64,000 nt of DNA from a virus. The translations under genes were made by a program, and so were the position numbers. The stretch is from positions 1-64,000 of the IMG/VR virus record IMGVR_UViG_3300035661_000038; one strand, given 5' to 3'. The first letter of the stretch is position 1; every line of letters begins with the position of its first letter. The notes beneath the pieces were generated by a model. It was not told where the DNA came from, ran no database searches, and worked only from the letters and a program-made list of their open reading frames with translations. Below, piece by piece: positions 168 through 62,319 of this stretch.

Positions 168-189
168 GACCAAAAAGCGCCTTTTGGTC
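168..189. repeat. 22-bp dispersed palindrome, copy 1
   Basis: GACCAAAAAGCGCCTTTTGGTC; overlaps the TGA stop of 188..697. Confidence 0.95.
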
Positions 190-697
190 AGCGGTCAAGC
201 GCTCGCGAGAGGCGCGCCGCGAGGTCGAGCACCTCCGCATAGCGCGCCGCCGACGCATCGGCGCGGTCGGCGTGGCGCGCAAGGATGCGCGCGAAATTGC
301 GCACCACCTCGACGAGATCCTCTGCACGCAATTGCGCGTCCGCCGCCGGCACGACACGCGGCTTGAGCGCAAGCCCGTCGAAGTTGTCAACGTCGCGCGC
401 GACGAAGACGATCTGACCACGCTCGCTCACCGCGAGGCACGGCCGGCCGTCCATCGGCAGCGAGTCGTCGAGATTCTTGCGACGAAGGTGCGCACCGCGC
501 CACGGCACTCCAACGCCACCCATCAGGTCCGCCATCCCACGGAGCTGAGCGCCGTCGAGCGCGTTCATCACCTCACCCTCCGCCGCACGAATCGCCGCCA
601 CCGCCACCGCGCGCGCATCCGCACGCGCATCATCGAGCGCGCGCGACGCCTCGACCGCGCGCGCCGTCGCGCGTCGCAACACGTCCACCTCGGTCAC
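188..697 (-). CDS. Hypothetical protein
   Basis: 169 aa, GC3-rich codons, GTGA overlap with the upstream gene. Confidence 0.75.
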   Translation of the reverse strand: MTEVDVLRRATARAVEASRALDDARADARAVAVAAIRAAEGEVMNALDGAQLRGMADLMGGVGVPWRGAHLRRKNLDDSLPMDGRPCLAVSERGQIVFVARDVDNFDGLALKPRVVPAADAQLRAEDLVEVVRNFARILARHADRADASAARYAEVLDLAARLSRALDR

Positions 698-963
698 GTC
701 ACACTCCGCGGTCGCCCCGTCGCTCCGCGACCGCGCAAGTCGAAACGCCCCTTGGCCTTCGCCTCCGTGCGGGTGCGTTCAACATCCGCGCGCATGTCGA
801 GCTTGGCGATCCAGCGAATGAGCGTGACGACACTGACGCCGATCTGCTCGGCGGCGCGGTTCTGGAAACCATCGGCGCGCGCAAACGCCTCCAGGATCTC
901 GACGCGGGCGCGCGCCGGATCCGTGGTGATGAGGGCACCGATCTCGGTTTGCCGAAAGGCCAT
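694..963 (-). CDS. Fis-type helix-turn-helix protein
   Basis: ILEAFARADGFQNRAAEQIGVSVVTLIRWIAKL resembles the Fis/HTH_8 pattern. Confidence 0.7.
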   Translation of the reverse strand: MAFRQTEIGALITTDPARARVEILEAFARADGFQNRAAEQIGVSVVTLIRWIAKLDMRADVERTRTEAKAKGRFDLRGRGATGRPRSVT

Positions 964-974
964 GACATTGATGT

Positions 975-1256
975 CTATGCCGCGGAGTCCCCACGCTCAA
1001 CCAACTCCGATGACAACGGTAACCGGAACCTCGACGCGGCGAGCTCGCGGATGCGCTTCGCCTCGCCGCGGAGCCCGACGCGGTTGGCGAGGTGGACGAA
1101 GAACCCCGCCGAGCACCCAAGCAGATCCGCCGCGCGCCCCGTTGCGCCCGCCGTCGCATAGAGGCTCGCAAGGATCTCCGCACGCGCCTCATCCACGCGC
1201 CCGTCGCGAATCAGGAGGTAGACGTGATGTTGGTCTGCCTTGCGACGTCGAGGCAT
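975..1256 (-). CDS. Fis-type helix-turn-helix protein
   Basis: ILASLYATAGATGRAADLLGCSAGFFVHLANRVGL; start taken at MPRRRK. Confidence 0.6.
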   Translation of the reverse strand: MPRRRKADQHHVYLLIRDGRVDEARAEILASLYATAGATGRAADLLGCSAGFFVHLANRVGLRGEAKRIRELAASRFRLPLSSELVERGDSAA

Positions 1257-2197
1257 AGCCGCTCCCAAAGCTCCTCGGGGCTGATGCTGTCCGGATCCGT
1301 CTTCGGTCGCAAGCGCACGCGCCGATAGTCGACGTGGCGCCCGAGGCCCATCTTGAGCTCCTCGTCGACGAGATCGCCGGCGCGGTCGGAGTCAGTGAGG
1401 CTGACGACGCGAGAGAACGTCGCGAGCTTCGCAAACACGATCGCCGGCGCACGCGATCCTGAGAGCGTCGCGAGGCTCGCGACGCCGCCATGGGCAACCA
1501 ACGCCCGCTCGACCGCGAGCGCATTGAGCGCGCCCTCCAACACGACGACCAAATCGCGCTGCGCGCGCGACGGCCACCGCTCCTCGCCAAACATCACCCC
1601 AAAATCAGGCCGCTCCTCGCCTCGCGGCGCGAGGTAGCGCTTCACCGCCGGGTCGCGAGAAATGGTCCGTGCAGCGTACCCAGCAGGCGTCCCCGCAGCG
1701 TCGCGCGTGACGAGGACGATGCGCCCGGCGAGCCGTCCATCCACCGCATACCCGACGCGCCAACGCTCGACCTGCCACGCATCAATCCCTCGCGCCTCCG
1801 CGTACCGTCGCATCGGTGTCGGCCACGCCGAGAGCGGCTCGAAGACCACCTCTAACGGCACGCGGAACGGCCGCGCGCCGACCGGCCTCACGTCCACGCG
1901 CGCGGCGAGCGCGGGCGCCCGCGCACCGTACCCGGCCTCAACCTCCGCGAGCCACTCGCGCGCCACGTGGTAGCCGACATCGCGCACCGTCATCACAAGG
2001 TCGACGAGGTGGCCGCCGTAGTGGCACGACGCGCAGTAATGCGCCCCGCGCCGCGCACCCGACGCCATGATCGACCACGACGGGTTCGCGTCCTCATGCG
2101 TCCCGCTCGGGCACTTCGCCCATAGCCGCACCCCGCGCTCCGTCTCCTTGGTGACGTCGATGCGCAGCCGCCCAAGCACGTCCTGCACGTCAACCAT
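1211..2197 (-). CDS. dnaG: DNA primase (CHC2 zinc finger + TOPRIM)
   Basis: CPSGTHEDANPSW..CASC zinc ribbon, LEGALNAL and DSDRAG TOPRIM motifs, adjacent to DnaB. Confidence 0.85.
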   Translation of the reverse strand: MVDVQDVLGRLRIDVTKETERGVRLWAKCPSGTHEDANPSWSIMASGARRGAHYCASCHYGGHLVDLVMTVRDVGYHVAREWLAEVEAGYGARAPALAARVDVRPVGARPFRVPLEVVFEPLSAWPTPMRRYAEARGIDAWQVERWRVGYAVDGRLAGRIVLVTRDAAGTPAGYAARTISRDPAVKRYLAPRGEERPDFGVMFGEERWPSRAQRDLVVVLEGALNALAVERALVAHGGVASLATLSGSRAPAIVFAKLATFSRVVSLTDSDRAGDLVDEELKMGLGRHVDYRRVRLRPKTDPDSISPEELWERLCLDVARQTNITSTS

Positions 2198-3656
2198 CGC
2201 GATCTCGCTTCGCCTTCTTCGGTCGCAAGAACGTCGTCGCCTCGTCGGCGTCGCCGCCCATCACGTCGTAAGGCACCGACCGACCACCTGAGATCGTGCC
2301 ACGCGTCGGATCAAGATCGAGCTCCACCGCGAGCGGCCACATGCCGTACCGCTGCTTAAGAACGATCGCCTCCAACGTGTTGTCCTCAACACGCTTCCAG
2401 TGCGCCGGCCGGTGAACGCCGATCATATTGTCGGCGACCTCGGTCCACGCGCCCGATCCCTTCACGCCCTCGCGCGTCGGACGCTTGTCCGGACGCTGCT
2501 CGATGTCCTTGAGGCGCTGCTGCGCGGCAAGCACGGAATGGATGCCGAGCTTGTCGGTCATCGCCTGCATACGGAAGAGAACACGCTTCTCCTCACTCGG
2601 GCTGTCGTCGACGATGCACCGCTCGAAGAGATCAGCGATGAACACCTCGCACTGCGACTCGACGATGTGCTGCTGCACGAGGTCGAGGTTCTTGCCATTG
2701 GACGGCTTCTCGCCACTCTCGCGCCAGAATGGGTTCGGGAAGAACTTCACCCACTTCGCGATTTCGTGCATTCGGTCGCGGTGCTCCTCACGCTGCTCAC
2801 GCGTCGCGCGACCGCTCATGAAATCGGCACGCGAGAACCCGCACGAAAGGATCGCGAGGAGCTCAATCGTCATCCCTGTCCCCGGCTCCCACGGCGCATA
2901 AAGCACGCGGCGCGCCTGACGCGCGATGCCGAGAGCCATGTGCGCCAGGAGCAGGCTCTTCCCCGAGCCAGGAAGCCCCGTGACGATCGTGACCATCTTC
3001 GGTGCTGCGCCGGGGATGAGCCGACGCGCGGGCACCGCCAGCGTGTCGTCCATGAAGTTATCGAGCCCATCGATCCCGAATGGGTAGACGGCCTGCCCAA
3101 GACACCGCCGTTCGATCTCTGCGGCCTGGCGTTCCACGAGCTCCTCGGGGTCTTCGAGCCACTGCGCCCCGCTGGCACCACCCTTGAAAAACTCGCCGAC
3201 CGACTGCGCGAGCGCGACGACGCGCGAGGGGTCCTCTCGGGGATTCTTGAGCGCATCAAGCAGCGCCGCCACCGGCCCCGTCGTCGCGCGCGCCCGCCGG
3301 TCATCCCAAAAAAGAGCACGCACGTGATGGTCGAGATTGACCGGGACATCGGGGCGAAGCTCGGCGAGCTGCGCCGCGTACCGCACCACTGACTCGTCAA
3401 CACCGACCTGCTGAAGCGTCGCGAGGTCGAAGTGGAGATTGCGCCGCACGAGGTCGAGCACCCCACCCCATAACGCGCGGTGCTCGGGGCTCTGGAACAC
3501 CGTCGCGCGCGGCAACAGCGGCAGAAGCTTCGCGCGTGTCTTGGCGTCGACAATGGCGGCGGCAAGCACTACCTGCTCGTTCACCGGGTCGACGGGGACG
3601 ACGACTTCCGACGTCTCGCCCGTCGACGCCCCCTTCACCCTCTGGCGCATCCGCAT
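2190..3656 (-). CDS. dnaB: Replicative DnaB-like (SF4) helicase
   Basis: NEQVVLAA N-terminal domain, Walker A GLPGSGKS, FIAD, GSGAWTEVAD, KQRYG; start after GAGGGAG. Confidence 0.88.
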   Translation of the reverse strand: MRMRQRVKGASTGETSEVVVPVDPVNEQVVLAAAIVDAKTRAKLLPLLPRATVFQSPEHRALWGGVLDLVRRNLHFDLATLQQVGVDESVVRYAAQLAELRPDVPVNLDHHVRALFWDDRRARATTGPVAALLDALKNPREDPSRVVALAQSVGEFFKGGASGAQWLEDPEELVERQAAEIERRCLGQAVYPFGIDGLDNFMDDTLAVPARRLIPGAAPKMVTIVTGLPGSGKSLLLAHMALGIARQARRVLYAPWEPGTGMTIELLAILSCGFSRADFMSGRATREQREEHRDRMHEIAKWVKFFPNPFWRESGEKPSNGKNLDLVQQHIVESQCEVFIADLFERCIVDDSPSEEKRVLFRMQAMTDKLGIHSVLAAQQRLKDIEQRPDKRPTREGVKGSGAWTEVADNMIGVHRPAHWKRVEDNTLEAIVLKQRYGMWPLAVELDLDPTRGTISGGRSVPYDVMGGDADEATTFLRPKKAKRDRDG

Positions 3657-3661
3657 CTCCC

Positions 3662-3868
3662 TCAGCCGACTCGTCGGCAGCGCACCGTCCGCGTCCCGTC
3701 CTCGAACCCAATCGTTACCGTGCCGTGGGCCTGGTGACGGCGCACGAACCAGAGCCACCAGAGCCACCGATCGACTCGCCACCACGGCGGGTCGAAGAGC
3801 TCGTACTCGCCCTCGCCGTAGCCCGTTCCAAGCCCGACGCGCGCCCCATCCATCCGCCGATACCTCAT
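3662..3868 (-). CDS. Small hypothetical protein (Trp-rich)
   Basis: MRYRRMDG...; fits operon packing. Confidence 0.5.
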   Translation of the reverse strand: MRYRRMDGARVGLGTGYGEGEYELFDPPWWRVDRWLWWLWFVRRHQAHGTVTIGFEDGTRTVRCRRVG

Positions 3869-7635: not shown

Positions 7636-7657
7636 GACCAAAAAGCGCCTTTTGGTC
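7636..7657. repeat. 22-bp dispersed palindrome, copy 2
   Basis: Lies between the stop at 7659 and the helicase start at 7612. Confidence 0.95.
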
Positions 7658-7658: not shown

Positions 7659-8015
7659 TCAGCGAACCGCGCGTCCCTCACACGCCGCCGCGACCGCCGC
7701 GAGGAGTGCGTCACCCGTCCTGGCCTTCTCCGCGGCGAGGCGAGTGTTGCGAACAACGCTCGCCGCGTCCGTGCCGCGTGACTCGCGCTTCCTCGCCGTC
7801 GTGTTGTATCGCCCGAGCGCCGCACAGAGCTCGCTAGGGAGGCTCCACGCGTGGCGCACGAGCGCCGCGTAGACCACCGCCGGATCACGCTCCTCGCACA
7901 CCGCCCGAAGCGCCGTTTGGGCGGCGCTGAGCTGCGTCGAGCTCGAAGACGGCACGGGCGAGACGGGGGACGAGTCGATGGAGCGGATCGGGATGCTGGC
8001 CATCACGCTGCTCAA
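7659..8015 (-). CDS. Hypothetical protein
   Basis: 118-aa ORF; start uncertain. Confidence 0.5.
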   Translation of the reverse strand: MSSVMASIPIRSIDSSPVSPVPSSSSTQLSAAQTALRAVCEERDPAVVYAALVRHAWSLPSELCAALGRYNTTARKRESRGTDAASVVRNTRLAAEKARTGDALLAAVAAACEGRAVR

Positions 8016-8945: not shown

Positions 8946-8967
8946 GACCAAAAAGCGCCTTTTGGTC
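8946..8967. repeat. 22-bp dispersed palindrome, copy 3 (extended 8941-8972)
   Basis: ccgacGACCAAAAAGCGCCTTTTGGTCgtcgg. Confidence 0.95.
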
Positions 8968-19942: not shown

Positions 19943-21214
19943 TCACGCCCCAGTCGGTCGCCCCGTCGTCAACGCCGGGATGACAACCGGATGGCCAACT
20001 GCCGGTGAGACCTGGGACCACGGCAGTCGGTTCGCCTTGGCGATGTCGGCGGCGTGGTCCGGGTCGCCGTAGTAGGTCATCGAGAGGCCCACGAGCGTGT
20101 CTCCTTCGCGAGCGACGTGGACCGCGAGGATGTCGCCCTGGCGTGCGCCCGAGAGAGTCGCAGCGGTGGACGATGCCTGGAGCGGCGCGCGCTCCGCGAC
20201 GAACGCCCGGATTGACGTCATCAGCGTCACCGCGTCGTCGACGACGACGCGCGCGGTGTCGGCGGTGCCCGCGAAGTACCGCGCCGCGCGCACCACATCG
20301 ATCGTCCCGGTCTTTGTCGAGAGGAGCTCGGCGGGCACCTGGCCGAGCGTGTCGCCGAAGTCGTTGGCCGTGCGCGCGATGTCTGCCGACATCGCGACCG
20401 CCGCCGTCTGCACCTGCGCCGGCACCGTCGCGATCTTCTGCGCGATGCCGGCGAGCGACTTGAGTTGCCCGGTGACGTACTGCACCTTGCGCGACGCCTG
20501 CGCGAGCACCTCGGACGGGTAGTCGGCGAGCGATTCGAGCTGACCGAGGGTGAGCGAGTTGGGCGCGCCGATCGACGCCGCGCGCGCGAGCTCGGTGGAG
20601 ACCTTGCCGGCGGCGATCGATCCGGTGGTCGCGATCGACGCAGCCCATGCCGCTGCCGACGCTTGGCTACGCGCGACCTGTGCGACGAGATTCGCGTCGC
20701 GCGACGAGATCGGCGACGTCGGACGGCCGCCGCGTCCCTTCCACGCGAACTCGACGCTCCACGCGATGTCGTGTGCGCGCGTCGTTGGGAACTCCCACGA
20801 CGTCGCTCGACCCTCGCGCACCACCGAGTCGTTGTCCCAGAAGTCCGGGCCGCTCGACCTCCACGTCACCCGGAGCAGTGCCCCCTCCGATAGCAGCGCC
20901 TCGAACGCATCGCGAAGCTGCTGAGGAGCGACGAGCGAGGTGATCGTTCCGTCAGAGTCAGTGAACGTCGAGCCGCTCTTGGCGAGGAGCGTGCGCTTCC
21001 ACTCGCCCTCCCACGTGCTCGGCAACTCCGAGAACGCGAGAAGCTGCTGTGTGGCGTTCTTGTTCCCGGGATACCAGGTGGTCGGCACCTTCTGCGCCGA
21101 CTTCCACGACGCCCCCTGGTGGGGGAGGCCGTTGCCCGCGAGAAACAGAGCGCGCGGGCGCCGACCGATGACGTCGACCTCTTCGATGAGGAGGAAGCTG
21201 GCGTACGCACCCAC
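19943..21214 (-). CDS. Tail tube initiator with C-terminal LysM
   Basis: HVAREGDTLVGLSMTYYGDPDHAADIAKAN; follows the tape measure. Confidence 0.75.
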   Translation of the reverse strand: MGAYASFLLIEEVDVIGRRPRALFLAGNGLPHQGASWKSAQKVPTTWYPGNKNATQQLLAFSELPSTWEGEWKRTLLAKSGSTFTDSDGTITSLVAPQQLRDAFEALLSEGALLRVTWRSSGPDFWDNDSVVREGRATSWEFPTTRAHDIAWSVEFAWKGRGGRPTSPISSRDANLVAQVARSQASAAAWAASIATTGSIAAGKVSTELARAASIGAPNSLTLGQLESLADYPSEVLAQASRKVQYVTGQLKSLAGIAQKIATVPAQVQTAAVAMSADIARTANDFGDTLGQVPAELLSTKTGTIDVVRAARYFAGTADTARVVVDDAVTLMTSIRAFVAERAPLQASSTAATLSGARQGDILAVHVAREGDTLVGLSMTYYGDPDHAADIAKANRLPWSQVSPAVGHPVVIPALTTGRPTGA

Positions 21215-21247: not shown

Positions 21248-21269
21248 GACCAAAAAGCGCCTTTTGGTC
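21248..21269. repeat. 22-bp dispersed palindrome, copy 4
   Basis: Intergenic, 16 bp past the stop at 21286. Confidence 0.95.
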
Positions 21270-28344: not shown

Positions 28345-28366
28345 GACCAAAAAGCGCCTTTTGGTC
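28345..28366. repeat. 22-bp dispersed palindrome, copy 5
   Basis: Overlaps the TGA of 28365..29126. Confidence 0.95.
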
Positions 28367-31585: not shown

Positions 31586-32989
31586 TTACTGCGCGAACTC
31601 CACGACCAACGCGCGCTTGTAGCGCTGTGGACCGCTCGGCGCCGTGATGTCCGTCGGCATCGCGAACGCCGTCGTGATCGACCACGCGGCCGACACGTAG
31701 TGGCCCAGGCGATCGAGCGGCGCGCGCAAGTAGAGGCGCACGTGCTCGGCGGAAACCGCGATGCCGTTCTGCACCACGTCGAACTCGCCGACCTTGCCGA
31801 TCAGCCCCGCCTCGCTGACGTACTGCGACTCGTCGAAGCCCTTCTCGTAGCCCATCCCCTGCCCGGTGATGATGATGCGGCCGATGTTGACGCCGTTGTT
31901 GTTCGTCGACTCGGCGCCGATCTCGCGCGAGTAGTACGCCTTCGTCCCGGTGGCGGTGCGCGCGCCGCAGTTGAGCGGGTTCGGCGCTTCGTTGTTCAGG
32001 TAGAACATCACGCCCGAGGTGTGGCCGATGAAGCCCGCGCTGTACGCCGCGCCCTCAGGGAGCGACTGGTTGAGGCGCTGATACACCGGGTCCGCGAACA
32101 TGCCGGCGTTGCCGATCGGCGAGATGTGCGCGTGATAGTAGCCGTCGTCGTGCGGGGAGACGTTGTTTGAGCGCAGCACGGCCACCGCGTTGATGATCGT
32201 CTGGAGCTGGAGCGTGTCGGATGCGCTGATCGAGTCGACCGAGAGGCCACCCGAGGAACGAATGACCGTCGGCGCGTCGACCGAAACGATCGGCGAGCGG
32301 ATCGGGGCACCACCGCCGCCGAGCGCCGCCTGGAGGTAGAGCGTCCCGGGACCGTACGCATCGGTCGGATCGTCGGCGTTGCAGCCGATGACGTTCGCCG
32401 CGATCGGGGTGACGCCATTGTAGACGGTGACCGCGAGCGGGTTGGCCGGCGAGACGGGCTGCGGCTTGGCCGAGACCGACGTGTTGAGAACGGTCGTGAA
32501 GCCGTTCAGCGACGCGACACGCAGCGTGGTGTCACCGGCGACGGCCGCGGAGATGAGGTTCGACTGACCCGAGAGGTAAGCCTTGAACATCGCGTTGCGC
32601 GCGACGCGGTTGACCGACTGGCCCGCCTGGAGGCCGAACGTCTTGACCTTGTTGAGGAACAGGTCCGCGTTCGACGTGACGCTCGTCGGCATGTGCACGT
32701 CGATCGCCGACGCGATGAGGTTCAGCTGCACGAGCCACTGCTCGTACGGCACCTCCTGCGGCAGCGGCTCGGCGCCGACCGCGAGCGGTTCGACGACGGG
32801 CGACATCAGCCCGGAGCGCGTCTCGTAGAGCTCCTGGCCGGTCTGCGCGTCCCACTTCTCCCAAGGGAACTCCGCGCGATACGCGAGGTTGGGGAAGAGG
32901 CCGTCGTAGAAGTACCGCGCGAGCAGGCCCTTCTGGTTCAGATCGAGAACGGTAGGCGGGATGCCGAGGACGATGCCGGGATTGGCCAT
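31586..32989 (-). CDS. Major capsid protein
   Basis: 467 aa after the scaffold; YHAHISP, PLDRLGH..AW; strong codon bias. Confidence 0.85.
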   Translation of the reverse strand: MANPGIVLGIPPTVLDLNQKGLLARYFYDGLFPNLAYRAEFPWEKWDAQTGQELYETRSGLMSPVVEPLAVGAEPLPQEVPYEQWLVQLNLIASAIDVHMPTSVTSNADLFLNKVKTFGLQAGQSVNRVARNAMFKAYLSGQSNLISAAVAGDTTLRVASLNGFTTVLNTSVSAKPQPVSPANPLAVTVYNGVTPIAANVIGCNADDPTDAYGPGTLYLQAALGGGGAPIRSPIVSVDAPTVIRSSGGLSVDSISASDTLQLQTIINAVAVLRSNNVSPHDDGYYHAHISPIGNAGMFADPVYQRLNQSLPEGAAYSAGFIGHTSGVMFYLNNEAPNPLNCGARTATGTKAYYSREIGAESTNNNGVNIGRIIITGQGMGYEKGFDESQYVSEAGLIGKVGEFDVVQNGIAVSAEHVRLYLRAPLDRLGHYVSAAWSITTAFAMPTDITAPSGPQRYKRALVVEFAQ

Positions 32990-33209: not shown

Positions 33210-33231
33210 GACCAAAAGGCGCTTTTTGGTC
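33210..33231. repeat. 22-bp dispersed palindrome, copy 6 (inverted core GGCGCT)
   Basis: Overlaps the TGA of the scaffold gene. Confidence 0.95.
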
Positions 33232-35793: not shown

Positions 35794-35997
35794 TCACTTC
35801 ATGTTGCGGAACGGCTTCGCCCCAGGTCCGCGACCGTGGTCCGGATACGAGGGAGCGAGAGGCGGCGAGACGTCGGCAATCTTCGCCGAGTCGCGCTCGG
35901 TGAGGCCGTGGTCGCGCGCGGGGAGCGTCGCGGCCTCGCCATCGGTGTGACCGGCAGGGGCCGGGGCGGGCGTGAGCTTGTACGACTTCGCGGACAT
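35794..35997 (-). CDS. Pro-rich small protein ending KPFRNMK
   Basis: GGAGG RBS. Confidence 0.6.
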   Translation of the reverse strand: MSAKSYKLTPAPAPAGHTDGEAATLPARDHGLTERDSAKIADVSPPLAPSYPDHGRGPGAKPFRNMK

Positions 35998-36022: not shown

Positions 36023-36044
36023 GACCAAAAGGTGCCTTTTGGTC
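36023..36044. repeat. 22-bp dispersed palindrome, copy 7 (core GGTGCC)
   Basis: Intergenic. Confidence 0.95.
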
Positions 36045-41720: not shown

Positions 41721-41742
41721 GACCAAAAGGCGCCTTTTGGTC
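41721..41742. repeat. 22-bp dispersed palindrome, copy 8 (perfect, core GGCGCC)
   Basis: Overlaps the TGA of 41741..42295. Confidence 0.95.
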
Positions 41743-50489: not shown

Positions 50490-50511
50490 GACCAAAAGGT
50501 GCCTTTTGGTC
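50490..50511. repeat. 22-bp dispersed palindrome, copy 9 (core GGTGCC)
   Basis: Abuts the stop of the ParB-N gene. Confidence 0.95.
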
Positions 50512-50512: not shown

Positions 50513-50929
50513 TCAGCGCAGGTGTGCCCACCGTGCGAGCCCGCTTACCCCGTCGAGGTCGACGACACGCGCCGGCGCCGTCGTCTCACCGCGTTGGACG
50601 GCAGCCGCGAGGCGATGATGCCCGTCAAAGATCCGCAACTCCCCGTCCCGCCGAAACACCGTTGGTAGGTCCACGAGCATCCCCCGCGCGTTGCGCTTGC
50701 CCTTAGCGACGTCGGGGGGGTCCTTCGCGAACCGCGCGACTTCCGCCGGGTCGACGGTCGGCTGAGTCGCAACGAGCTCCGAGAGCGTCACACGCTCGAC
50801 CGGCGCGCGCTCGACGAGCTTGTCGAACGCCGCCGTCGGCACCGAGAGGCGCGGGCGCGCGTCACGTACCGGCCACGGCACCGGCACGCCGTCGCCGCGG
50901 CGCATGTCGGGCTTCCTCTCGCCGGGCAT
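50513..50929 (-). CDS. ParB/Srx N-terminal domain protein (no HTH)
   Basis: LSELVATQ..LPTVFR..IFDGHHRLAAA. Confidence 0.8.
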   Translation of the reverse strand: MPGERKPDMRRGDGVPVPWPVRDARPRLSVPTAAFDKLVERAPVERVTLSELVATQPTVDPAEVARFAKDPPDVAKGKRNARGMLVDLPTVFRRDGELRIFDGHHRLAAAVQRGETTAPARVVDLDGVSGLARWAHLR

Positions 50930-50990
50930 GCACGCGAGCTTACACCGAGCGGCACGCGCACGAGGCACCCCGAGAAGCGCCGAAAACGAC

Positions 50991-51022
50991 TCGACCCCGG
51001 CCCATGGTCGGACCGGGGTCGA
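50991..51022 (-). terminator. Hairpin followed by a T-run on the - strand
   Basis: tcgaccccgg...ccggggtcga. Confidence 0.5.
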
Positions 51023-51084
51023 AAACGCGCGAGCGAGGCGCCTAGCGGCTCTGCACCGTCCAGTTGGTCACATCACACCAATCA

Positions 51085-51522
51085 TCACGCGTGCGCATAG
51101 CCATCGGCCTTGACGTAATCGGCGATCGCCACGAACGCATCCGCGTCCGCCTCGAACACCCGCTGAGCGAGGCTCGTGAAGATGGTCCGCTTCACCGCGA
51201 GCCCCGACGCGCACACCAGCTTGTGCTTCGCGAGCGCGTACCCGAGCTCGATGTACGCGCCGCGCGAGGCCGTCACCGGCGCAAGGAACCACACGATGTC
51301 CGCGCGATCGATGCCGTCAGTGAGGTCGTTCGTCGCGCGGTGCACGCGCTCCTCGTCGGTGAGCATCGCGTCGCCGCCCTTGGCGATGCTCGCTTCGATG
51401 CCGTCGGTCCAGTCCACGGTGATCTCCACGCCGATGTCACGGAGCGCTTTGAGCCAGGCGCGCACCCGCACGAGCTCCAGCCCCGACCCCGCGACGTAGA
51501 CCCGAAGCGCTCGCTCGCTCAT
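51085..51522 (-). CDS. Nucleoside 2-deoxyribosyltransferase-like protein (in frame with a coiled-coil ORF from 51942)
   Basis: VYVAG, DWT, DGIDRADIV, SRGAYIELGYALA. Confidence 0.75.
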   Translation of the reverse strand: MSERALRVYVAGSGLELVRVRAWLKALRDIGVEITVDWTDGIEASIAKGGDAMLTDEERVHRATNDLTDGIDRADIVWFLAPVTASRGAYIELGYALAKHKLVCASGLAVKRTIFTSLAQRVFEADADAFVAIADYVKADGYAHA

Positions 51523-51938
51523 CGGCCGACCATAGCGCACTGCGCGCCCCCCGAACGCCGTCCAAGAAGAATCGTCGACCCGTCGCGCACCCTCACGCGC
51601 GATGGTTTCCGCCGTGCCCAGGTCCGTGGCCTTCCTCGCTGCGCCGCGGATGCGCTCGGCGCGCTTCGCAATCTTCTTCCTGAGCTCCGCAACGTCATTG
51701 CGGACAACGTGGCCCTCGTGATCCACCTTCAACCCGCACGGGCACGCGTCCGCGAACCGTCGATAAAGCTCGTCGAAGCGCCGCGCCTCATCCTCGCGCC
51801 GCTCCTTCGCGCGCTTCCTCGCGGCCTTGGACCGCGCTTTGAGCCGAGCGACGACACGGCGCCCGGCATCGCGCTCAGCGCGCGCCTCTTCGAGCTCCTC
51901 GCGCAACCGCGCGATCACGTCCTCGGGGTCGCGCGCCG

Positions 51939-52124
51939 TCACGGCACCTCCACGACGCGCCACGCGCCTTCCAGGGCAACGATGAGCGCGGCCTGCTCGG
52001 CGTTCTCTCGCGTGGGGAACCGCGCGGCGTCCGCGCGCCGGCCCCAAAGATGGAGCGCGCTCCCGCACGCGTACTCGACGAGGCGCGGTTCACACGGGTC
52101 GTTCCGTTCGATCACGAAGGCCAT
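51939..52124 (-). CDS. Small hypothetical protein
   Basis: GGAGG RBS, MAFVIER..AARFPTRENAE. Confidence 0.6.
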   Translation of the reverse strand: MAFVIERNDPCEPRLVEYACGSALHLWGRRADAARFPTRENAEQAALIVALEGAWRVVEVP

Positions 52125-52417: not shown

Positions 52418-52439
52418 GACCAAAAAGCGCCTTTTGGTC
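52418..52439. repeat. 22-bp dispersed palindrome, copy 10 (extended 52413-52444)
   Basis: ctgacGACCAAAAAGCGCCTTTTGGTCgtcag. Confidence 0.95.
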
Positions 52440-52654: not shown

Positions 52655-54400
52655 CTACCGCGCGAGCAGGTCGAACCCGAGCCCGCCGCCTGAGGGACCG
52701 GCGTTGCCCCCAGAGGGGATGCCGAGCTGGCGCGCGCGCTCGCGAGCCATGTAAAGCGCCATCAGCACGTCGTCAGTGTGGTTGGTCGGCGTGTAGTAGA
52801 GGCACGCGTCGACGAGGCGCTGGACCTGCGGATGGCACTTACCGTGCTGGTCGTTGGGGATGAGCCACGCGCCGTTGCGCATCTCGATGAAGAACGCGGG
52901 CACGCCCGTGTCCGGGTGAGCCTTGGCGCGTCCCGTCGTCAGCCCGTCGATGGGCACGAGCTTGTTCTTGGCGCGCGTGAACTGCTTGATGAAGTCCTGC
53001 GCGGCGTTGTTCTCGACCATGACGAGCGGGTCGAACTCGCGCACGCGGTATTGCTCCCACTTGGCGATGATCTTGTCGACGATGGTAGGTCCGTCGAGCT
53101 GGCCGCAGTCGACGTCGAGCAGAAGCCGCGTCCCGTCGTCCCAAACCTCGAACGTCACGATCGCGGTGTCGTCGTGCTCCTCGCCGGGAGACACCGCGAG
53201 GTCGACGCCGATAACGCACCACTTCGCGCGCGCTGTCGGCTTCGATTGCAACGAATAGATGCCCGCCTCGCGTGCAAGGCGCTTGGCGAGCTCGATCCAC
53301 TCCACCTTGCACAACGCCGTATCGTCGTCGCGGCACACCTGGCACTGCACCCGATTGAATTCGGCGGGGCTCTGCGTCCGGCGAAGGTTGTCGATGACGG
53401 CGACCGAGTGCCGCTCAGGCCACAGCGGCACCTGGTTGAGCGGATCGGGATCGTGCGCCGTCAAGCGCAGCGTACCCGTCGTCGCGCCGTCGACTCCGGG
53501 CACCTCGGGGCGCACGTGGGGGGCAATCTCGTCGTCGATGCCCCACGTGTCCGGCCCCTCGGTGCCGTCGAGATACTTCACGGGCGGCAGGCTGTACTTG
53601 ATGCTCCCCAGAATCGACATCCGCAACGTCGGCCACCCCGCGCGCTCGGCGCGGTGGAGCAAGTCGTCGGGGTGCCACGCCGTGTTGAGCATCACCGCCT
53701 TGGCATCCGCGGGATCGAGACGCGCGAGCGCCGTGGAATCGATCCACGTGTGCACCTTGTCGCGCTGCGCCTTGGTCGCGGTGTTGTCGCGCGTGAGGAT
53801 GTCGTCGATGACGAGCCACTTGATGCGCTTGCCGGGGAGGCGCTTCGAGTCCATCCCGCACCCCATCAGCGACGGAGTGCGGATGCCATAAGGTCGGTCG
53901 ACCACGAGCGAGTTGACCGTCCACGGCTCCCCCTTGCGCGTCGTGCGACGAAGGTCAGGGAAGACGAGCCGCAGCCGCGCGGAGGTCTCGATGTAGCTGC
54001 GCACCATCTGCAACGGGTCACGCGTCTGCGCCTCGGTGGCAGAAATGTACGCGGCACGCGTGCTCGGATCGTTGCCGAGCATCCAAAGCGTGATCCCGCT
54101 CGCGGTGAACGTCTTGGCGAACCCGGGAGGCATGAAGATGACCGACTTCGAGTGCTTCTCGATGAAGTCGAGCATCACGCGCTGATGCGGCAGAACGCGT
54201 AGGTAGTCCTGGGTCATCTCGTCGCGGAGCACGAACTCAAAGAAGTCGACGAGGCTCGTGCGCGCGCGTTGGGCGCGACGAAGCACCGCCAGCCCCGCGC
54301 GCTTGGCGATCTCGGGATCAGTGAGCGGGGCGGGGTCGTCGGGCGGGAACAGGCGGGGCAAGCGCAAATCGTTCGCGGGGCTGGTCATCGTGTCGCGCAT
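52655..54400 (-). CDS. terL: Terminase large subunit
   Basis: LPHQ, MPPGFAKT, LVIDD, NTAWHPDDL, IGVDLA, VENNAAQ, HTDDVLMA. Confidence 0.92.
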   Translation of the reverse strand: MRDTMTSPANDLRLPRLFPPDDPAPLTDPEIAKRAGLAVLRRAQRARTSLVDFFEFVLRDEMTQDYLRVLPHQRVMLDFIEKHSKSVIFMPPGFAKTFTASGITLWMLGNDPSTRAAYISATEAQTRDPLQMVRSYIETSARLRLVFPDLRRTTRKGEPWTVNSLVVDRPYGIRTPSLMGCGMDSKRLPGKRIKWLVIDDILTRDNTATKAQRDKVHTWIDSTALARLDPADAKAVMLNTAWHPDDLLHRAERAGWPTLRMSILGSIKYSLPPVKYLDGTEGPDTWGIDDEIAPHVRPEVPGVDGATTGTLRLTAHDPDPLNQVPLWPERHSVAVIDNLRRTQSPAEFNRVQCQVCRDDDTALCKVEWIELAKRLAREAGIYSLQSKPTARAKWCVIGVDLAVSPGEEHDDTAIVTFEVWDDGTRLLLDVDCGQLDGPTIVDKIIAKWEQYRVREFDPLVMVENNAAQDFIKQFTRAKNKLVPIDGLTTGRAKAHPDTGVPAFFIEMRNGAWLIPNDQHGKCHPQVQRLVDACLYYTPTNHTDDVLMALYMARERARQLGIPSGGNAGPSGGGLGFDLLAR

Positions 54401-54417: not shown

Positions 54418-54439
54418 GACCAAAAAGCGCCTTTTGGTC
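54418..54439. repeat. 22-bp dispersed palindrome, copy 11
   Basis: 4 bp upstream of the TAGCCT box preceding terL. Confidence 0.95.
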
Positions 54440-56547: not shown

Positions 56548-56719
56548 GTTACTTTTTTTTTTATAGGAGCACGTGCATCTGTGCGGCGTCGAGCGCACGT
56601 CGAGGTTGAACGCTGCCGCACGGGGCGCATCGCCACGGAGCACGAGAGGCTCTCGGCGAGATCGTCGTCGAACCGATCGAGCTTGCGCTTCGACAGCCGC
56701 TCCTGTCGCTCCAGGTCCT

Positions 56720-56980
56720 TCACGCGCGAGTCGATGCCTTCGTGAGCCGCGCGACGACTCGCGGCACGCTCCGCTCCGCTTCATCGGGGCTCGCCGCGTA
56801 GATGCAGATCGCCCGGGTCGGCGAGACAGTGAGGAAGTGCTGCATCAGGCGCGTCGCCTCACCCGAGGGGGCAACGCGGATGTAGTGGGGCGGGAGGCGT
56901 CGACCGCCCAGGTACGGGTGAAGGTGGAGCTCGCCTGTCGAGAGCACCACGACCGCGCCGACCACCTCGATCCGACTCAT
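56720..56980 (-). CDS. Hypothetical protein
   Basis: 86 aa; ATGA overlap. Confidence 0.55.
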   Translation of the reverse strand: MSRIEVVGAVVVLSTGELHLHPYLGGRRLPPHYIRVAPSGEATRLMQHFLTVSPTRAICIYAASPDEAERSVPRVVARLTKASTRA

Positions 56981-57357
56981 CGGGGGAGCTCCCGCCTCGG
57001 GTCGCGACCAAAAGGCGCTTTTTGGTCGTCGGCGAGGAGCCCTCCAGAGGCGCTAGGAAGCGCCGGGGAGTCCGGACGGGTAGACGGACGTCCGGCGCCC
57101 GAAAACGCCTCCACGTGCCCAAAGAACGCCGCGGCGGCGGCGTCGTGCTCCACGGCCGCAATTCGGTAAGCCTCTGCCCGCCCAAGCACCCGGTAGCGCG
57201 CCATCTGCTCCGAGCGAATCACCCGCATCCACTGCTCGCGGCGCGCGTCGGCGCAGAGCTCGGCGCGCATCGAGGCGCTCAGGAACCAATCCGACGCCAC
57301 GAGGACATTCGACGTCACCGAGACCATCGCCAACACGACCAACCAACCCGGGATCAT
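56977..57357 (-). CDS. Hypothetical membrane protein; 3' end probably read-through
   Basis: MIPGWLVVLAMVSV. Confidence 0.45.
   Translation of the reverse strand: MIPGWLVVLAMVSVTSNVLVASDWFLSASMRAELCADARREQWMRVIRSEQMARYRVLGRAEAYRIAAVEHDAAAAAFFGHVEAFSGAGRPSTRPDSPALPSASGGLLADDQKAPFGRDPRRELPR
57006..57027. repeat. 22-bp dispersed palindrome, copy 12 (core GGCGCT)
   Basis: 26 bp upstream of the ATG at 56980. Confidence 0.95.
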
Positions 57358-57716
57358 CGTCGCAACCTCTACCGCGACCACGCGCCCGAGCTCACCGCCG
57401 CGCGCATCGCGTCCTTCGCCATCTCCACGACGCACTCGTCCCATAGCTTCCCGCGAAGCGCGCGCACGAATCGCGCATCCACGCTCCACTCCCCCTCGAC
57501 GCGGGCAGCGTGCGGCAGGTCCACGAGCCTCACTCTCACGCGCACCCGCCGCCGCCCTTCGCGTGCCGCCCCGAGCTCCCACCGGAGCACCGACCGGGAC
57601 AACCTCACCTCGCCGCGCTCAACGTCCATCCACCGTCGATGCCGCGGAAACCGCTTCGAAACCACACGAGCAATCGAGCGCCGTCTGCGCGTTGCGCACG
57701 TGGAGCTCGTAGTCGT

Positions 57717-58274: not shown

Positions 58275-58286
58275 CGGTCTCTCCCT

Positions 58287-58726: not shown

Positions 58727-60261
58727 CACAACACCCCGCGCACGAGATAGAGCGAGCGCTGGGCGCGCGTCGCCGCGACATAGGCCAGATTCTCCTCCTG
58801 GCCACCGCGCCCGGGGCGGTACGTGTCCCAAAGAAGCCACGCGCGCCCGCGCTCCAAACCCTTCGCCTTATGCGTCGACGAGAGAGTGATACGGGCGCTC
58901 TCATCGTTATCGTCGAAAAGGCGCGTGATCCGCACGTCGACCTCCGAGAGCGTCCGCGCACCCTCCGAGAGCGCGTGGAGACATGCCGCGCGATCCTCCA
59001 CCGGCTCGACCTCACCCGGCGGGTCCATCCGCGCGAGCCGCAGCCGCTCCGACAACAACCACTCGTCGACGATGACCCGAAAGCGCTCGACGCCGCGCGG
59101 GTCGTTCAGGTCGACGCCGCACCGACGCACGAAGTTGGAAAGGCTTGCCCCGACGTCACGCCCAAGGACGACAGCGCGACGTCCCTCGCGGAGGAACCCG
59201 AGGCACAGCCGCATCAGCGGTGCGTTGGTCCGCGAGAGAATGAAGTCACCGGGCGAGGCTGTGCGAAGCAACGTCGCTTCGTCGACATCGTGAGCAACCT
59301 CACCGAGCGGCGCGCCCGGAAAGGATTCGAGATCGGGCACCCACTGGCGCGCAAAGTCGACGATACGGCTGCCGCAGCGGTAGCAAACCGACAGCGGCAG
59401 CGTCCGCGCGGCGAGACGCGACGTGAGCTTGGCCATCGAAGCGCTGTCCGCGCCACGGAATGCATAGATGGCCTGGCGCGAGTCGCCGACAACGCAGATC
59501 CGCCCCGCCAGCGTCACCGCCCCGAGCACCAGCTTGGCCTGCGCCGGCGTGAGATCCTGGGCCTCGTCGACCAGCACCCGGTCGTACGTCTTCCCCCGGA
59601 GCCCAAGCACGACGGGGAGCCACACCTGGTCATCGAAGTCGACGACGCCCTGAGTGAGGTCGCGCGCCGCCGCCATCACTGCGAGCACGTCCCGCGCGTA
59701 CTCGGCGCGGTTCGCGTGCGGAACGTCGACCCCGTACGCGTCGACGACTCGGTTCACTTCGTCAGCCGTCTCAGCGAGCGTCGCCTTGGCGAACTTCACC
59801 CCCTGGACGACGGCGTGACGGCGCTCGTAAGTGCCCGGCGCGTTCTTGTAGAGGTCACGCGCGAGCTTGGACGCGCGATCGCGGTCCACCTCGAACTTGC
59901 GACCGAACGCGCGCATCAGCGTCCGAAACCCGTACGAGTTGAGCCCGAGGACATCGGCCGAGCGCGGCGCCTGGCGCTTGAGCTCGTCAGTGATGCGCGT
60001 GTTGAACGCCGTGAGCAGCGTCTCATCGCGCCGAGTGCGCTGCGTGATCTCGACGATCGTCTTTGTCTTGCCCGAACCCGCGCGCGCCTCGACGACGGTG
60101 TGACCGTCGCCGCTCGTCGCGTCGGTGAAGATCGCCTCTTGGTAGGAGCTCCAGCGCCACGACTTCGACGCCTCGGGTGCGCGCGCCGGCACGCCCTCCA
60201 ACCAGTCGTCGATCGACCCCTGAGAGGCTTGGGCCTCGGGGGACCACGGGACGCGCGCCAT
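58726..60261 (-). CDS. UvrD/Rep-like SF1 helicase
   Basis: ARAGSGKT, VDEAQD, GDSRQAIYAFRGA, HKAKGLE, YVAATRA. Confidence 0.92.
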   Translation of the reverse strand: MARVPWSPEAQASQGSIDDWLEGVPARAPEASKSWRWSSYQEAIFTDATSGDGHTVVEARAGSGKTKTIVEITQRTRRDETLLTAFNTRITDELKRQAPRSADVLGLNSYGFRTLMRAFGRKFEVDRDRASKLARDLYKNAPGTYERRHAVVQGVKFAKATLAETADEVNRVVDAYGVDVPHANRAEYARDVLAVMAAARDLTQGVVDFDDQVWLPVVLGLRGKTYDRVLVDEAQDLTPAQAKLVLGAVTLAGRICVVGDSRQAIYAFRGADSASMAKLTSRLAARTLPLSVCYRCGSRIVDFARQWVPDLESFPGAPLGEVAHDVDEATLLRTASPGDFILSRTNAPLMRLCLGFLREGRRAVVLGRDVGASLSNFVRRCGVDLNDPRGVERFRVIVDEWLLSERLRLARMDPPGEVEPVEDRAACLHALSEGARTLSEVDVRITRLFDDNDESARITLSSTHKAKGLERGRAWLLWDTYRPGRGGQEENLAYVAATRAQRSLYLVRGVL

Positions 60262-60428
60262 CACTCCCACCTATCCAGGTCAACGATTGAGACGACGCCG
60301 CACGCCTGGTCGGCAGCGTCGCACCTTATGACCTTGGCCGAGCGCGCACGGTCGCAAAACTCGTCGTGCCAGTCGTCATCGAGCTGCGGTGCCGTCGTCA
60401 ACGCGGCCACGAGGGGATGCTGGTCCAT
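60261..60428 (-). CDS. Small hypothetical protein (55 aa, not in the ORF track)
   Basis: AAGGAG RBS, MDQHPLV..DRWE*, TGATG coupling to the helicase. Confidence 0.5.
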   Translation of the reverse strand: MDQHPLVAALTTAPQLDDDWHDEFCDRARSAKVIRCDAADQACGVVSIVDLDRWE

Positions 60429-60464
60429 CGGGTCTCTCCTTGGTTCAGGTTCAAGTCACACCAG

Positions 60465-60555
60465 TGCCCCCATGAGGAGTCGAACCTCATGCACCAAGCC
60501 ACGCGCGCGAAACGACCAGAAAGCGCGAGACGACTCGGAGAACCGCTCAGGGGCA
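60465..60555 (-). ncRNA. tRNA-like structure (acceptor stem + T-arm + long central stem, no D stem)
   Basis: TGCCCCT/GGGGGCA stem; ATGAGG-TTCGACT-CCTCAT arm; CCGAGTCG/TGGCTTGG stem. Confidence 0.5.
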
Positions 60556-60593
60556 ATCGAGGAGCGCGCGACGGCGCGCTCCTCAGGGAGCTC

Positions 60594-62267
60594 TCAGCCC
60601 TCGAATGGCATCCAGGGGAGCGGCGCCGGCTTGGCGTTGCGGCGACCGTAGAGGAGCTGCCCCGCGGCGCGCTGGATGTCGTCCTCGGCCCACGGGTCCT
60701 GGTTGACCTCGTGCGCGTAACGAGTGAACGCGTTCACGACGGCGGCGCGCGTCGGACCCGCGGCGGCGGAAGTGTCCTTCGCCCACATCTCCATCAGCTT
60801 CGGCACGACCACTGCCGAGCGGCCGCGTACGGGCACGAGCTCGCGCTCGACGATCGCGGAGAAGAGACCGGGCAGCGCATCCTCGACGCGGATCGGCATG
60901 TCCGGGTTCTGCGCGCGCGCCTCTTCGACGACGTTGTCCGAGACCGCGTACCCCCATGCGCGCTGGAAGTGCTCGATCTTGCCGAGCGCCGCGCGGAACC
61001 CCTGACGAAACTTCGCCACCATCGCCGCGACCGAGCCGACGTGGCGAATGCGGAACAGGTCCTGCGTCGCCTGGTCGATGACAATAAGGTTCAAGCAGAG
61101 GTTCTGAAAGACGACCGCGGATCCGCGGAGCGAGCCGCCGCCGGTGTCGTCAGTGCGCACGACGACGCCGGCCTTGAAGAACTCGCCGGCCACGTACTTC
61201 TCCGGCCGGATGTTCGAATGAAACATCACCTCGAACTTGGCGCGGTTGCCGTCGTAGTCGACCGTCCCGCGAGCGTCGGCGGGCGCGGCGATCGCGAGCG
61301 CCTCCGCGATTCGGTCGACGTCGAACGCGCTGTACGACGGCGACACGACACCGAAGACCTCGCGCCCCGAAGCACCGTTGCGCGTGCGGAACTTGAGCAT
61401 GTCGACCTCAAAATCCTCGCGCCGGTGCGAAGGACGCTTGGCCTGCTCCGCAGCGTGCAGCGCACGGCGCGCGTCCTCGTCATCGGCGAGCGCCTCCAGC
61501 CACGCGTTGACATTGTGACGGCGAAGCTCGGGCCAGCACTTCGCAAGATACGCCGCACCGCCGAACCCGAGCCGCGAGCACAGCCCATCGAACGCCGCCC
61601 GCGCGAGGACGTAACGCCGCTCCGTCTTGCAGTCGACCAGCGAGCCGTCGACGTCCATCGACAGGTCGTGCGTCGCCACGAGCTCGTCAGATCGATGCTC
61701 GGCGGTGATGCGATCGACGAACTCGCCGCAATACTCGCGGACGAGCGGCTTGGCGTCGTGCTCGACGCGCGAACGGCGCGCCTTGTCGACACCCGCCCGC
61801 ACGACCATCGTCCCGCGGGCGAAGTGCGGCTGTTCCGGGGCGAAGCCGGCCTTCTCAGCGGCAAGCAGATCCGCGCCCGAGCGGAGCGCGCCTTCGAGAT
61901 CGACGCTCTGACCGCGGATGGCCGCGGAGGCGACGAGGGTGGGGCGCGCGAGCGTCGCGACGGCTCGGGCGGGGGTTTCGATGGGGACGACGCTCGGGAC
62001 GCTCGGCGAAGCGACGGCGGTCTGGACGGTGGCGCTCGCCATGACGTCAGCAGAGGTGAGGACCTTCGGCACGCCCGCGCCGGGGTGGCGCGAGACAAGC
62101 TCGTCGCATGCCCGCTCCCAGTCCGCCGGCTCGACCACGATCGATTCGCCGGCGAGCGAGACGCACACGAGGGGACGCGAGGCATCAGCGCCAGCGAAGG
62201 CTTCGATCGGGAAGCGCTCAAACGCAGGAATGGAGGCGTCGGCAGAAGTGAACGGAATACGGGGCAT
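60594..62267 (-). CDS. DUF932-like protein with N-terminal extension
   Basis: FGVVSPSYSAFD..GVVVRTDDTGGGSL..LCLN..IRHVG..VVNAFT. Confidence 0.7.
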   Translation of the reverse strand: MPRIPFTSADASIPAFERFPIEAFAGADASRPLVCVSLAGESIVVEPADWERACDELVSRHPGAGVPKVLTSADVMASATVQTAVASPSVPSVVPIETPARAVATLARPTLVASAAIRGQSVDLEGALRSGADLLAAEKAGFAPEQPHFARGTMVVRAGVDKARRSRVEHDAKPLVREYCGEFVDRITAEHRSDELVATHDLSMDVDGSLVDCKTERRYVLARAAFDGLCSRLGFGGAAYLAKCWPELRRHNVNAWLEALADDEDARRALHAAEQAKRPSHRREDFEVDMLKFRTRNGASGREVFGVVSPSYSAFDVDRIAEALAIAAPADARGTVDYDGNRAKFEVMFHSNIRPEKYVAGEFFKAGVVVRTDDTGGGSLRGSAVVFQNLCLNLIVIDQATQDLFRIRHVGSVAAMVAKFRQGFRAALGKIEHFQRAWGYAVSDNVVEEARAQNPDMPIRVEDALPGLFSAIVERELVPVRGRSAVVVPKLMEMWAKDTSAAAGPTRAAVVNAFTRYAHEVNQDPWAEDDIQRAAGQLLYGRRNAKPAPLPWMPFEG

Positions 62268-62297
62268 TGATCTCTCCCGGTTGGGGTCGGGGATCGC

Positions 62298-62319
62298 GAC
62301 CAAAAAGCACCTTTTGGTC
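62298..62319. repeat. 22-bp dispersed palindrome, copy 13 (core AGCACC)
   Basis: Upstream of the DUF932 RBS. Confidence 0.95.

Follow-up and report, generated by a model that had tools for sequence, protein, structure and literature searches.

The DNA considered here is a window of 64,000 nt, the first 64 kb of the complete 81,955-bp virus record IMGVR_UViG_3300035661_000038 (G000 below), a phage genome from a microbial-mat metagenome with 67% GC, direct terminal repeats by the IMG/VR classification and a completeness of 100% by CheckV. Genes were called with a codon-bias script, which leaves start codons uncertain, and 108 of the 111 called genes lie on the minus strand. Scattered among them at irregular intervals of 1.3-12 kb are 13 copies of a 22-bp palindrome, GACCAAAA-N6-TTTTGGTC, and it is the distribution, ancestry and possible function of this element that we address. 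Given the orientation of the genes, the sites are to be read on the minus strand.

The palindrome had been described in an earlier reading of the window's letters (the original prediction), and all 13 copies listed there were recovered at the same positions, with 8-bp arms that never vary and with the core variants it had reported. A scan of the contig beyond the window, which it had proposed as a check, yielded three further sites, at 64363, 71377 and 76401, for a total of 16 in the whole genome. The chance expectation from shuffled sequences was 0.01 copies; the shuffle maximum was 1, and none reached 13. The octamers GACCAAAA and TTTTGGTC each occur 16 times genome-wide, every time within a full site, so that there are no lone half-sites, and relaxing the search to as many as four mismatches added only one, poor match in the whole genome. 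The exact terminal repeat of 94 bp is palindrome-free, and therefore no copy has been counted twice. Genome-wide, the cores on the plus strand are AGCGCC (eight copies), GGCGCT, GGTGCC and GGCGCC (two each), and AGCACC and GGCACC (one each); on the coding (minus) strand the most frequent form of the site is GACCAAAA-GGCGCT-TTTTGGTC. As had been claimed, both orientations of the asymmetric cores are represented, but the coding strand favors G..T over A..C by nine to two (p=0.065).

Eleven of the 16 sites are intergenic in a genome with 8.2% non-coding sequence (p=3.5e-9), a genome-wide preference for short gaps of the kind seen for Cluster A stoperators. Most sites begin 0-20 nt past a stop codon and/or stand 17-33 nt ahead of the next start, seven of them in the latter position and immediately 5' of a GGAGG-type ribosome-binding site. 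The claim that a TGA stop falls in the arm or its extension in eight of the 13 copies holds only if the sites are read on the minus strand, where the TGA overlaps the first two site bases at 168, 28345, 33210 and 41721, and TGAC immediately precedes the sites at 7636, 50490, 52418 and 54418. Nor are all of the sites intergenic: those at 57006 and 64363 lie within the last 11-23 codons of genes, and that at 76401 is in frame within the 941-aa open reading frame (ORF) of a family-B DNA polymerase (PolB). The site at 71377 is at or within the start of a gene. Overall, a role in expression would agree with this boundary placement; but the same placement would be expected if an element of 20 bp had room only at boundaries in a 92%-coding genome, and we do not take it as proof of a transcriptional role.

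Copy 1 (168..189, on the minus strand, as are all 13) has the coding-strand core GGCGCT, and its arm is overlapped by the TGA of the upstream gene at 188-697. Copy 3 (8946..8967) lies 16 nt past a stop and 82 nt ahead of the next start, with flanks that lengthen the palindrome to CCGAC/GTCGG; the longest flank symmetry, CTGAC/GTCAG, belongs to copy 10 (52418..52439), which as RNA would form a 15-bp stem of -26 kcal/mol. Copy 6 (33210..33231), in the minority orientation with AGCGCC on the coding strand, has the stop overlapping its arm and, about 12 nt downstream, a distinct GC-rich hairpin that ends in a U-rich tail. Also in the minority orientation is copy 12 (57006..57027), probably within the last ~23 codons of the ORF at 56977-57381, whose TGA overlaps the next ATG. 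Copy 7 (36023..36044; GGCACC on the coding strand) stands 25 nt ahead of the ATG of the gene at 35794-35997, 5' of its GGGAGG ribosome-binding site, and copy 13 (62298..62319; GGTGCT on the coding strand) 30 nt ahead of the ATG of the 557-aa gene at 60594-62267. In copy 8 (41721..41742) the core is the fully symmetric GGCGCC, the stop overlaps the arm and the next ATG is 32 nt on. Copy 9 (50490..50511) immediately follows the TGA of the ParBc_2-like gene at 50513-50929, to which we return below.

Palindromes private to each phage lineage

No close relative was found among GenBank phages by megablast, TerL being at most 25% identical there. Metagenomic contigs of about 76-100 kb supply hundreds of TerL homologues. 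The comparison set comprised about 150 terL-centered loci and eight whole relatives, in which repeated inverted repeats were sought de novo. The palindrome array is a trait of a large uncultured clade of myophages, and its sequence is lineage-specific: related phages carry 12-34 copies each of their own palindrome, and in seven complete relatives there are 18-34 nearly perfect copies of a palindrome 18-24 bp long. Thus AGTCGAGGCCCGGGCCTCGACT occurs 18 times in G003, CCCAAACCCGGGTTTGGG 26 times in G004, ACGGATGATCGATCATCCGT 18 times in G005, CCGCAACACGTGTTGCGG 34 times in G006, ACGCCGGATCGATCCGGCGT 18 times in G007 and ACCGCAACACGTATTGCGGT 27-31 times in G008, and T[CT]GAAAAACGTTTTTC[GA]A is found six times in the closest relative, G001, a 43-kb fragment. 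Partial contigs supply about ten additional motifs, and some lineage motifs start with GACG and end with CGTC. Perfect copies make up 17/18, 26/27, 17/18, 29/34 and 15/18 of the sites in relatives, against 0-3 in reversed-sequence controls, and intergenic enrichment is seen in every genome (p=1e-6 to 5e-22). Beyond the palindrome itself no position within +/-45 nt is conserved, as a promoter or any other motif, in any of eight genomes, and an identification with the T4-type PeSL cassette, a stem-loop with a conserved early promoter, was rejected for want of such a flank. One complete relative, G010, has no palindrome family, even under relaxed criteria.

The palindrome is also private to the phage. 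With the observed transition-only core, it has a single match in 596 Gb of sequence from ~186,000 prokaryote genomes, each representing a species; the match is in an unrelated metagenome-assembled genome of a rumen Bacteroidaceae. Among 2.9 million viral contigs of IMG/VR it occurs only as isolated single copies. A family of repetitive extragenic palindrome (REP) type in a host chromosome, named in the original prediction as the finding that would speak against a phage-own system, was searched for in these ~186,000 genomes and none was found, and with only the one unrelated match we rule out a host REP or uptake sequence. In the complete genome there is no match to the RAYT/Y1 transposase family (PF01797) at E<=0.1, control genomes being positive, and none to integrase or resolvase (PF00589, PF00239). 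Contigs of three DNA runs contained only short identical fragments and noise, and say nothing on site conservation.

The sequence of the palindrome changes from lineage to lineage, and many of its positions are inherited. By ortholog groups in nine genomes, a site lies immediately before terL in six; in G000 this is copy 11 (54418..54439), which fills the junction 17 nt ahead of the terL ATG at 54400 and is followed by TGTAGCCT-N7-ATG, the only place where a TANNNT box follows a site. Copy 4 (21248..21269) stands 33 nt ahead of the start of the core gene at 19943-21214, which is preceded by a site in five of the nine genomes. Four genomes share a site before the tail sheath gene (copy 5, 28345..28366, 210 nt ahead of it, with the upstream stop overlapping the arm), four before the SF2 helicase gene (copy 2, 7636..7657, abutting the TGAC stop of the gene at 7659-8003), four before the family of the gene at 71000-71452, and three before the 467-aa gene at 31586-32989. 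Where a gap leaves at least 70 spare nt, sites hug the upstream stop in 18 cases and the downstream start in 24, with 12 in the middle, some of these gaps being perhaps inflated by missed small genes; in G006, G007 and G008 the sites are most often 10-25 nt from the next start. In five of eight genomes PolB (genome 76044-78869, L187:14044-16869, on the minus strand) continues past its conserved core into a variable Pro/Ala-rich linker that is not conserved, and then into a small additional C-terminal domain; in three genomes (G000, G003 and G008) the lineage palindrome is translated in frame within this linker.

How the sites change can be seen by comparing lineages. The TerL tree indicates fast turnover of the motif, and the sites of G007 differ from those of L151/L153 by one symmetric base pair (GACG-C-CGG…CCG-G-CGTC versus GACG-T-CGG…CCG-A-CGTC). 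These lineages have two to three sites at orthologous junctions, including one beside terL, and half-and-half hybrid sites occur in both. The orthologous junctions and hybrid sites therefore indicate concerted change at inherited sites rather than repeated fresh insertion. The further suggestion that the sites bound recombining modules finds no support, since the genes flanking them are not, by inspection, enriched for lineage-unique genes.

Central symmetry and candidate readers

The centers of the lineage motifs bear most directly on how the sites might be recognized. In ~19 distinct lineage motifs the tetranucleotide at the center is CCGG, TCGA, ACGT or GCGC, always self-complementary and CpG-centered; the +/-2 positions occur as C/G, T/A, A/T and G/C, and so covary. 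In a hairpin these positions, closing a loop of two bases, could not pair, and because unpairable positions still covary, two-fold recognition of duplex DNA is favored over a hairpin. The preference expressed in the original prediction for a double-stranded DNA site of a dimeric protein over an RNA terminator thereby gains strong comparative support, although the roles proposed there are not separated by it. Overall, we believe that the palindromes are probably double-stranded DNA sites read by a protein, whether as operators or as organizing elements, and lineage palindromes at common junctions point to the binding sites of a fast-evolving phage protein.

In the model we favor, the 22-bp palindromes would be cis-acting sites in double-stranded DNA, read with two-fold symmetry by a phage-encoded helix-turn-helix (HTH) protein, either a dimer or a protein with two HTH domains in tandem. 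Site and reader would co-evolve, giving each lineage a private palindrome while many positions are inherited, and, because the genome is 92% coding, the sites would occupy the places where 22 bp fit, whether in the gap from a stop codon to the ribosome-binding site that follows it or within the linker of a protein. Throughout the genome they could serve as operators or roadblocks, a network modulating transcription across gene boundaries during the lytic cycle, with an action similar to that of the KorB/KorA operators of IncP plasmids or of mycobacteriophage stoperators. We judge this operator or roadblock role to be quite possible, at a little less than even odds.

Two proteins are candidates for the reader. 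The first, G000_109 (694..963, minus strand), is an 89-aa protein with a Fis/NtrC-type HTH_8 domain: it matches Pfam HTH_8 (Fis family) at E=7e-4, its atlas look-alikes are HTH_8 clusters (score 0.93), in structure it resembles the C-terminal HTH of sigma-54 activators, and the best PDB match of the family profile is the RacA HTH (28 residues, E=6e-4). It is among the proteins called Fis-like in the original prediction, and it is a genuine HTH_8 candidate that may be the reader. Every relative has a small HTH gene after that for the primase, and in G006 (L205:10987-11511) and G008 (L219:15513-16007) the post-primase protein is a tandem double HTH; these two lineages use CCGCAA-N6-TTGCGG sites. 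In G008 all 31 centers are asymmetric, 25 CACGTA and six TACGTG (p about 0.001 for the bias in orientation), and CACGTG and TACGTA never occur. With every center asymmetric, the asymmetric form is itself selected, mostly oriented with transcription, and a tandem double HTH, as a covalent pseudo-dimer, fits a target of two half-sites and, in G008, an obligately asymmetric one.

The second candidate, G000_004 (genome 78960-80264, L187:16960-18264, beyond the window), is a protein of 434 aa that combines a SAP-like N-terminus with a zinc ribbon of four Cys, a linker of low complexity and a conserved helical core that modestly resembles the DNA-binding domain of ParB and KorB. In the AlphaFold model, residues 157-316 have a predicted local distance difference test score of 84-92, and when residues ~201-320 were compared with 48,161 chains, four of the six best matches belonged to the ParB family or its relatives: ParB on parS (6s6h, Z 8.3), Spo0J (1vz0, 6.9), KorB (8qa8, 6.7) and KorB-operator (1r71, 6.2), values that are modest for a helical domain. 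Its atlas look-alikes are DUF3102 and HTH_ParB; it has no Pfam match, and a Foldseek search with the whole model returned nothing significant. The family numbers 784 clusters at E<1e-30 (50% identity clusters), which is why we call the clade large. ParB/Srx-like N-domains are encoded on separate proteins, the ParBc_2-like protein at 50513..50929 (minus strand, by domain match) and a second at 66479-67165, beyond the window end. Beside G000_004, in eight of eight complete genomes, is another core gene, for a sigma-70 region-2-like protein (genome 80299-80961, L187:18299-18961; best PDB matches FliA and ECF sigmas), and this adjacency suggests a transcription module of the phage's own. The sigma-like protein itself was considered as the reader and rejected: a 22-bp palindrome misfits -35/-10 geometry, the sites are not coupled to any promoter motif, and the TANNNT box appears only at terL.

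Presence/absence profiling for a reader, in which family 31 and then family 51 looked promising, was dropped as a discriminator once a better domain hidden Markov model had recovered the HTH_8 gene from G010 and G011 as well, and residue-to-base covariation for the HTH of G000_004 in 15 lineages gave no clean code, the lineages being phylogenetically confounded.

At the same time, several observations count against our model. Both candidate readers are also present in G010, the complete relative that lacks palindromes; the structural match of G000_004 to ParB-like domains is modest (Z 6-8), and the HTH_8 match of G000_109 falls under the Pfam gathering score. The sites are tight to ribosome-binding sites in G006, G007 and G008, which would suit a role at the RNA level as well. 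Orientation biases (25:6 in G008, 9:2 in G000) are not what a simple symmetric homodimer predicts, near-perfect copies with almost no degenerate sites are unusual for an ordinary transcription-factor regulon, and, because the phage looks virulent, a repressor network of the lysogeny type is not expected.

Organizing, RNA-level and mobile-element alternatives

One alternative keeps the DNA-level recognition and changes the role: the palindromes may be loading or anchoring sites, similar to parS, OB or ram, that organize the phage chromosome rather than local operators. They might then serve condensation, the organization of a replication compartment or of packaging, or long-range silencing by a sliding clamp, with G000_004 and the separate ParB N-domain proteins as the machinery. 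The parS/ParB, NBS/Noc and ram/RacA systems organize bacterial chromosomes through dispersed, perfect 14-16-bp palindromes, often within genes, that have ACGT or CCGG centers and are read by HTH dimers, and CpG-centered perfect palindromes of 16-24 bp resemble parS (…CACGTG…), the Noc NBS (…CCCGGG…) and the RacA ram sites. The core of G000_004, with ParB/KorB DNA-binding domains as its best matches and DUF3102/HTH_ParB as look-alikes, the two encoded ParB/Srx-like N-domain proteins and the lack of any coupled promoter motif all fit such a role, and the placement at junctions may merely reflect the room available for 22 bp in a 92%-coding genome. Against it, no single protein unites the ParB CTPase N-domain with an HTH, the spacing is irregular (1.3-12 kb), G010 retains the proteins without the sites, and the structural Z-scores are modest. 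On balance we consider an organizing role unlikely. A related and still more speculative proposal, to which we give little credence as a joint claim, is that this large clade of virulent-type myophages uses a previously unrecognized pair of site and reader that co-evolves rapidly, and that a split ParB/KorB-like system, comprising a DNA-binding protein without a CTPase domain and stand-alone ParB N-domain proteins, or else a Fis-type HTH protein, reads the private CpG-centered palindromes, at inherited gene junctions and even in the PolB linker, so as to time or insulate transcription over the whole genome, the private sequence perhaps also marking self and non-self when relatives co-infect a cell.

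A second alternative places the element in the RNA, as an intercistronic hairpin whose exact sequence would be read by a phage RNA-binding protein or nuclease, for the processing of polycistronic mRNA, the protection of 3' or 5' ends, or the tuning of translation of the downstream gene. Because almost all of the genes point the same way, each site is transcribed; the sites abut stops and ribosome-binding sites; and they fold on the coding strand with energies of -12.7 to -26.2 kcal/mol, according to the reach of the flanking (c)GAC/GTC(g) symmetry, although about equally on the other strand. Orientation appears at first to argue in the same direction, since the most frequent core in G000 closes with G.U on the coding strand and with A.C on the other (9 versus 2), and G008 is biased as well; but G008 favors the opposite arrangement, C.A on the coding strand and U.G on the other, and consequently there is no consistent logic of RNA wobble. 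The symmetry down to the level of the loop and the covariation at an unpairable center, in ~19 lineages, also oppose an RNA-level element, as do the minority-orientation sites at equivalent junctions. RNase III sites of the T7 type have irregular stems of about 20 bp or more, and the stems here, at 8-15 bp, fall short of what that enzyme needs; no RNA-binding or nuclease candidate was identified. The RNA hairpin is thus, in our view, doubtful.

A selfish miniature palindrome, similar to REP/REPIN elements or miniature inverted-repeat transposable elements, could have multiplied separately in each lineage and been tolerated only at gene boundaries. Such an element would account for copies that are all-or-none identical, with few degenerate ones, for their REP-like position right after stop codons and for the in-frame insertion in the variable PolB linker, and the GACG…CGTC lineage motifs resemble CGTC-tagged REPs (PMC3733652). 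However, the genome lacks a RAYT/Y1 transposase, integrase or resolvase, the motif is essentially absent from cellular genomes and is isolated in other viruses, the trait persists over a deep clade, and positions are inherited among relatives with different site sequences that have changed in concert, all of which makes this origin very unlikely. That the palindromes are plain factor-independent terminators or attenuators is the most improbable explanation of all, for although a stable hairpin right after a stop codon is suggestive, it forms equally on the non-coding strand, its stem is A/U-rich and, as the original prediction had observed, lacks a U-tail (no copy has a U-tract 3' of the hairpin on the coding strand), its copies share an identical sequence, which structure alone does not require, the centers are symmetric, some copies lie within ORFs, including PolB, a canonical terminator-like hairpin stands separately after the site at 33210, a terminator-like scan picked up 0 of 16 sites, and promoter and terminator consensus scans gave no enrichment over shuffles.

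Comparison with known systems and other repeats

Conserved inverted repeats of phage phiC31 may be one analogue of the palindromes. The closest described case is that of the 17-bp repeats of Cluster O mycobacteriophages: in Corndog and its relatives TGTTCGG-NNN-CCGAACA occurs in 34 copies with invariant 7-bp arms and a variable 3-bp center, a third of them within genes, in phages with no integrase, and the authors, who compared five near-identical genomes, stated that the function was unknown (PMC4351075). Both families comprise tens of copies genome-wide, with invariant inverted-repeat arms around a variable center, mostly intergenic and without an integrase. The Cluster O repeats differ in their odd 3-bp spacer, are reportedly not closely linked to starts and have no meaningful orientation, and among those five genomes no sequence turnover was seen; the present sites are of even length, CpG-centered and in many cases syntenic, with a different sequence in each lineage of a deep clade. 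Thus, the claim that the motif is undescribed stands for its sequence, but the kind of feature has a precedent in Cluster O (PMC4351075).

The KorB/KorA operators of IncP-1 plasmids (RK2/RP4) are also about a dozen near-identical, dispersed palindromes on a mobile genome, read by dimeric HTH proteins that exert global control (PMC11790492, PMC2665229). The present sites share the multi-copy, dispersed palindrome, and one candidate reader, G000_004, may have a KorB/ParB-like DNA-binding fold; the KorB system differs in belonging to a plasmid, in a KorB that has its own ParB CTPase domain, and in OB sites of 13 bp at defined promoter distances. With the stoperators of Cluster A phages (L5, Bxb1) the present sites have in common many intergenic positions in short gaps and, if our proposal for the reader is right, co-evolution of site and reader, and a block to elongation is the proposed action in both (PMC9283540, PMC6550527). 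Stoperators, which belong to temperate phages with an integrase and an immunity repressor, are asymmetric sites of 13 bp to which a monomer binds, strictly oriented with transcription (PMC9283540, PMC6550527). The sites in G000 cannot be counted among them for that reason, being 22-bp palindromes with a biased orientation (9:2) in a complete genome that has no integrase and yielded no repressor. REP/REPIN elements with their RAYT resemble the present sites as short palindromes right after stops with a species-specific sequence (PMC3733652), but they are imperfect palindromes in hundreds of copies in bacterial chromosomes and need a RAYT gene; none of this applies here, where the complete genome has no RAYT and 596 Gb of cellular genomes hold one match.

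A few phage groups were already known to have dispersed invariant palindromes, for which no explanation had been given; here a deep clade provides ~19 natural site alleles at inherited positions, and hence a tractable system for the study of co-evolution. Its natural variants, which include symmetric sites, single symmetric switches, obligately asymmetric sites and one relative with no sites, predict specific results in binding assays. If the reader were found, it could provide insight into how large lytic phages whose genes form a single long array in one orientation time or partition expression, and the lineages might furnish orthogonal operator-repressor pairs for synthetic biology.

Other repeats and structures were seen in these genomes. 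A cassette of ~134 bp occurs twice in the window, at 1-134 and 62541-62678, 62.5 kb apart and with six differences; on the minus strand it contains an A-tract, promoter-like hexamers (TTGCAT-17-GAGACT), hairpins and an ORF start, and within its first copy lie the first 94 bp of the genome, which are identical to the last 94 bp (the terminal repeat). The best canonical terminator-like structure of its region, at 50990-51023 (minus strand) between the genes at 51085-51942 and 50513-50929, consists of a GC-rich stem of 15 bp with UCGUUUUCGG after it; its sequence is not related to that of the palindromes. G010 (L222, about 26-38 kb of the record, on the strand opposite to the genes) has 14 copies of a ~60-nt repeat at intervals of 0.4-1 kb, with promoter-like hexamers TTGAC...CATAAAC and then CGAAACCCGAACCC or AACCCAAAACC. 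In a more distant relative, L059 (IMGVR_UViG_3300047160_015156), a 31-nt repeat, TGAGTGTCGGGAGT-GAGGA-ACTCCCGGGGAG, is present in four copies, a hairpin with a non-palindromic, Shine-Dalgarno-like loop and a design unlike that of the palindromes. Finally, several of the relatives' TerL homologues (P0014, P0050, P0094, P0095 and P0114) are ~900-970 aa long and contain Hint/LAGLIDADG or homing-endonuclease domains, that is, inteins in the terminase.

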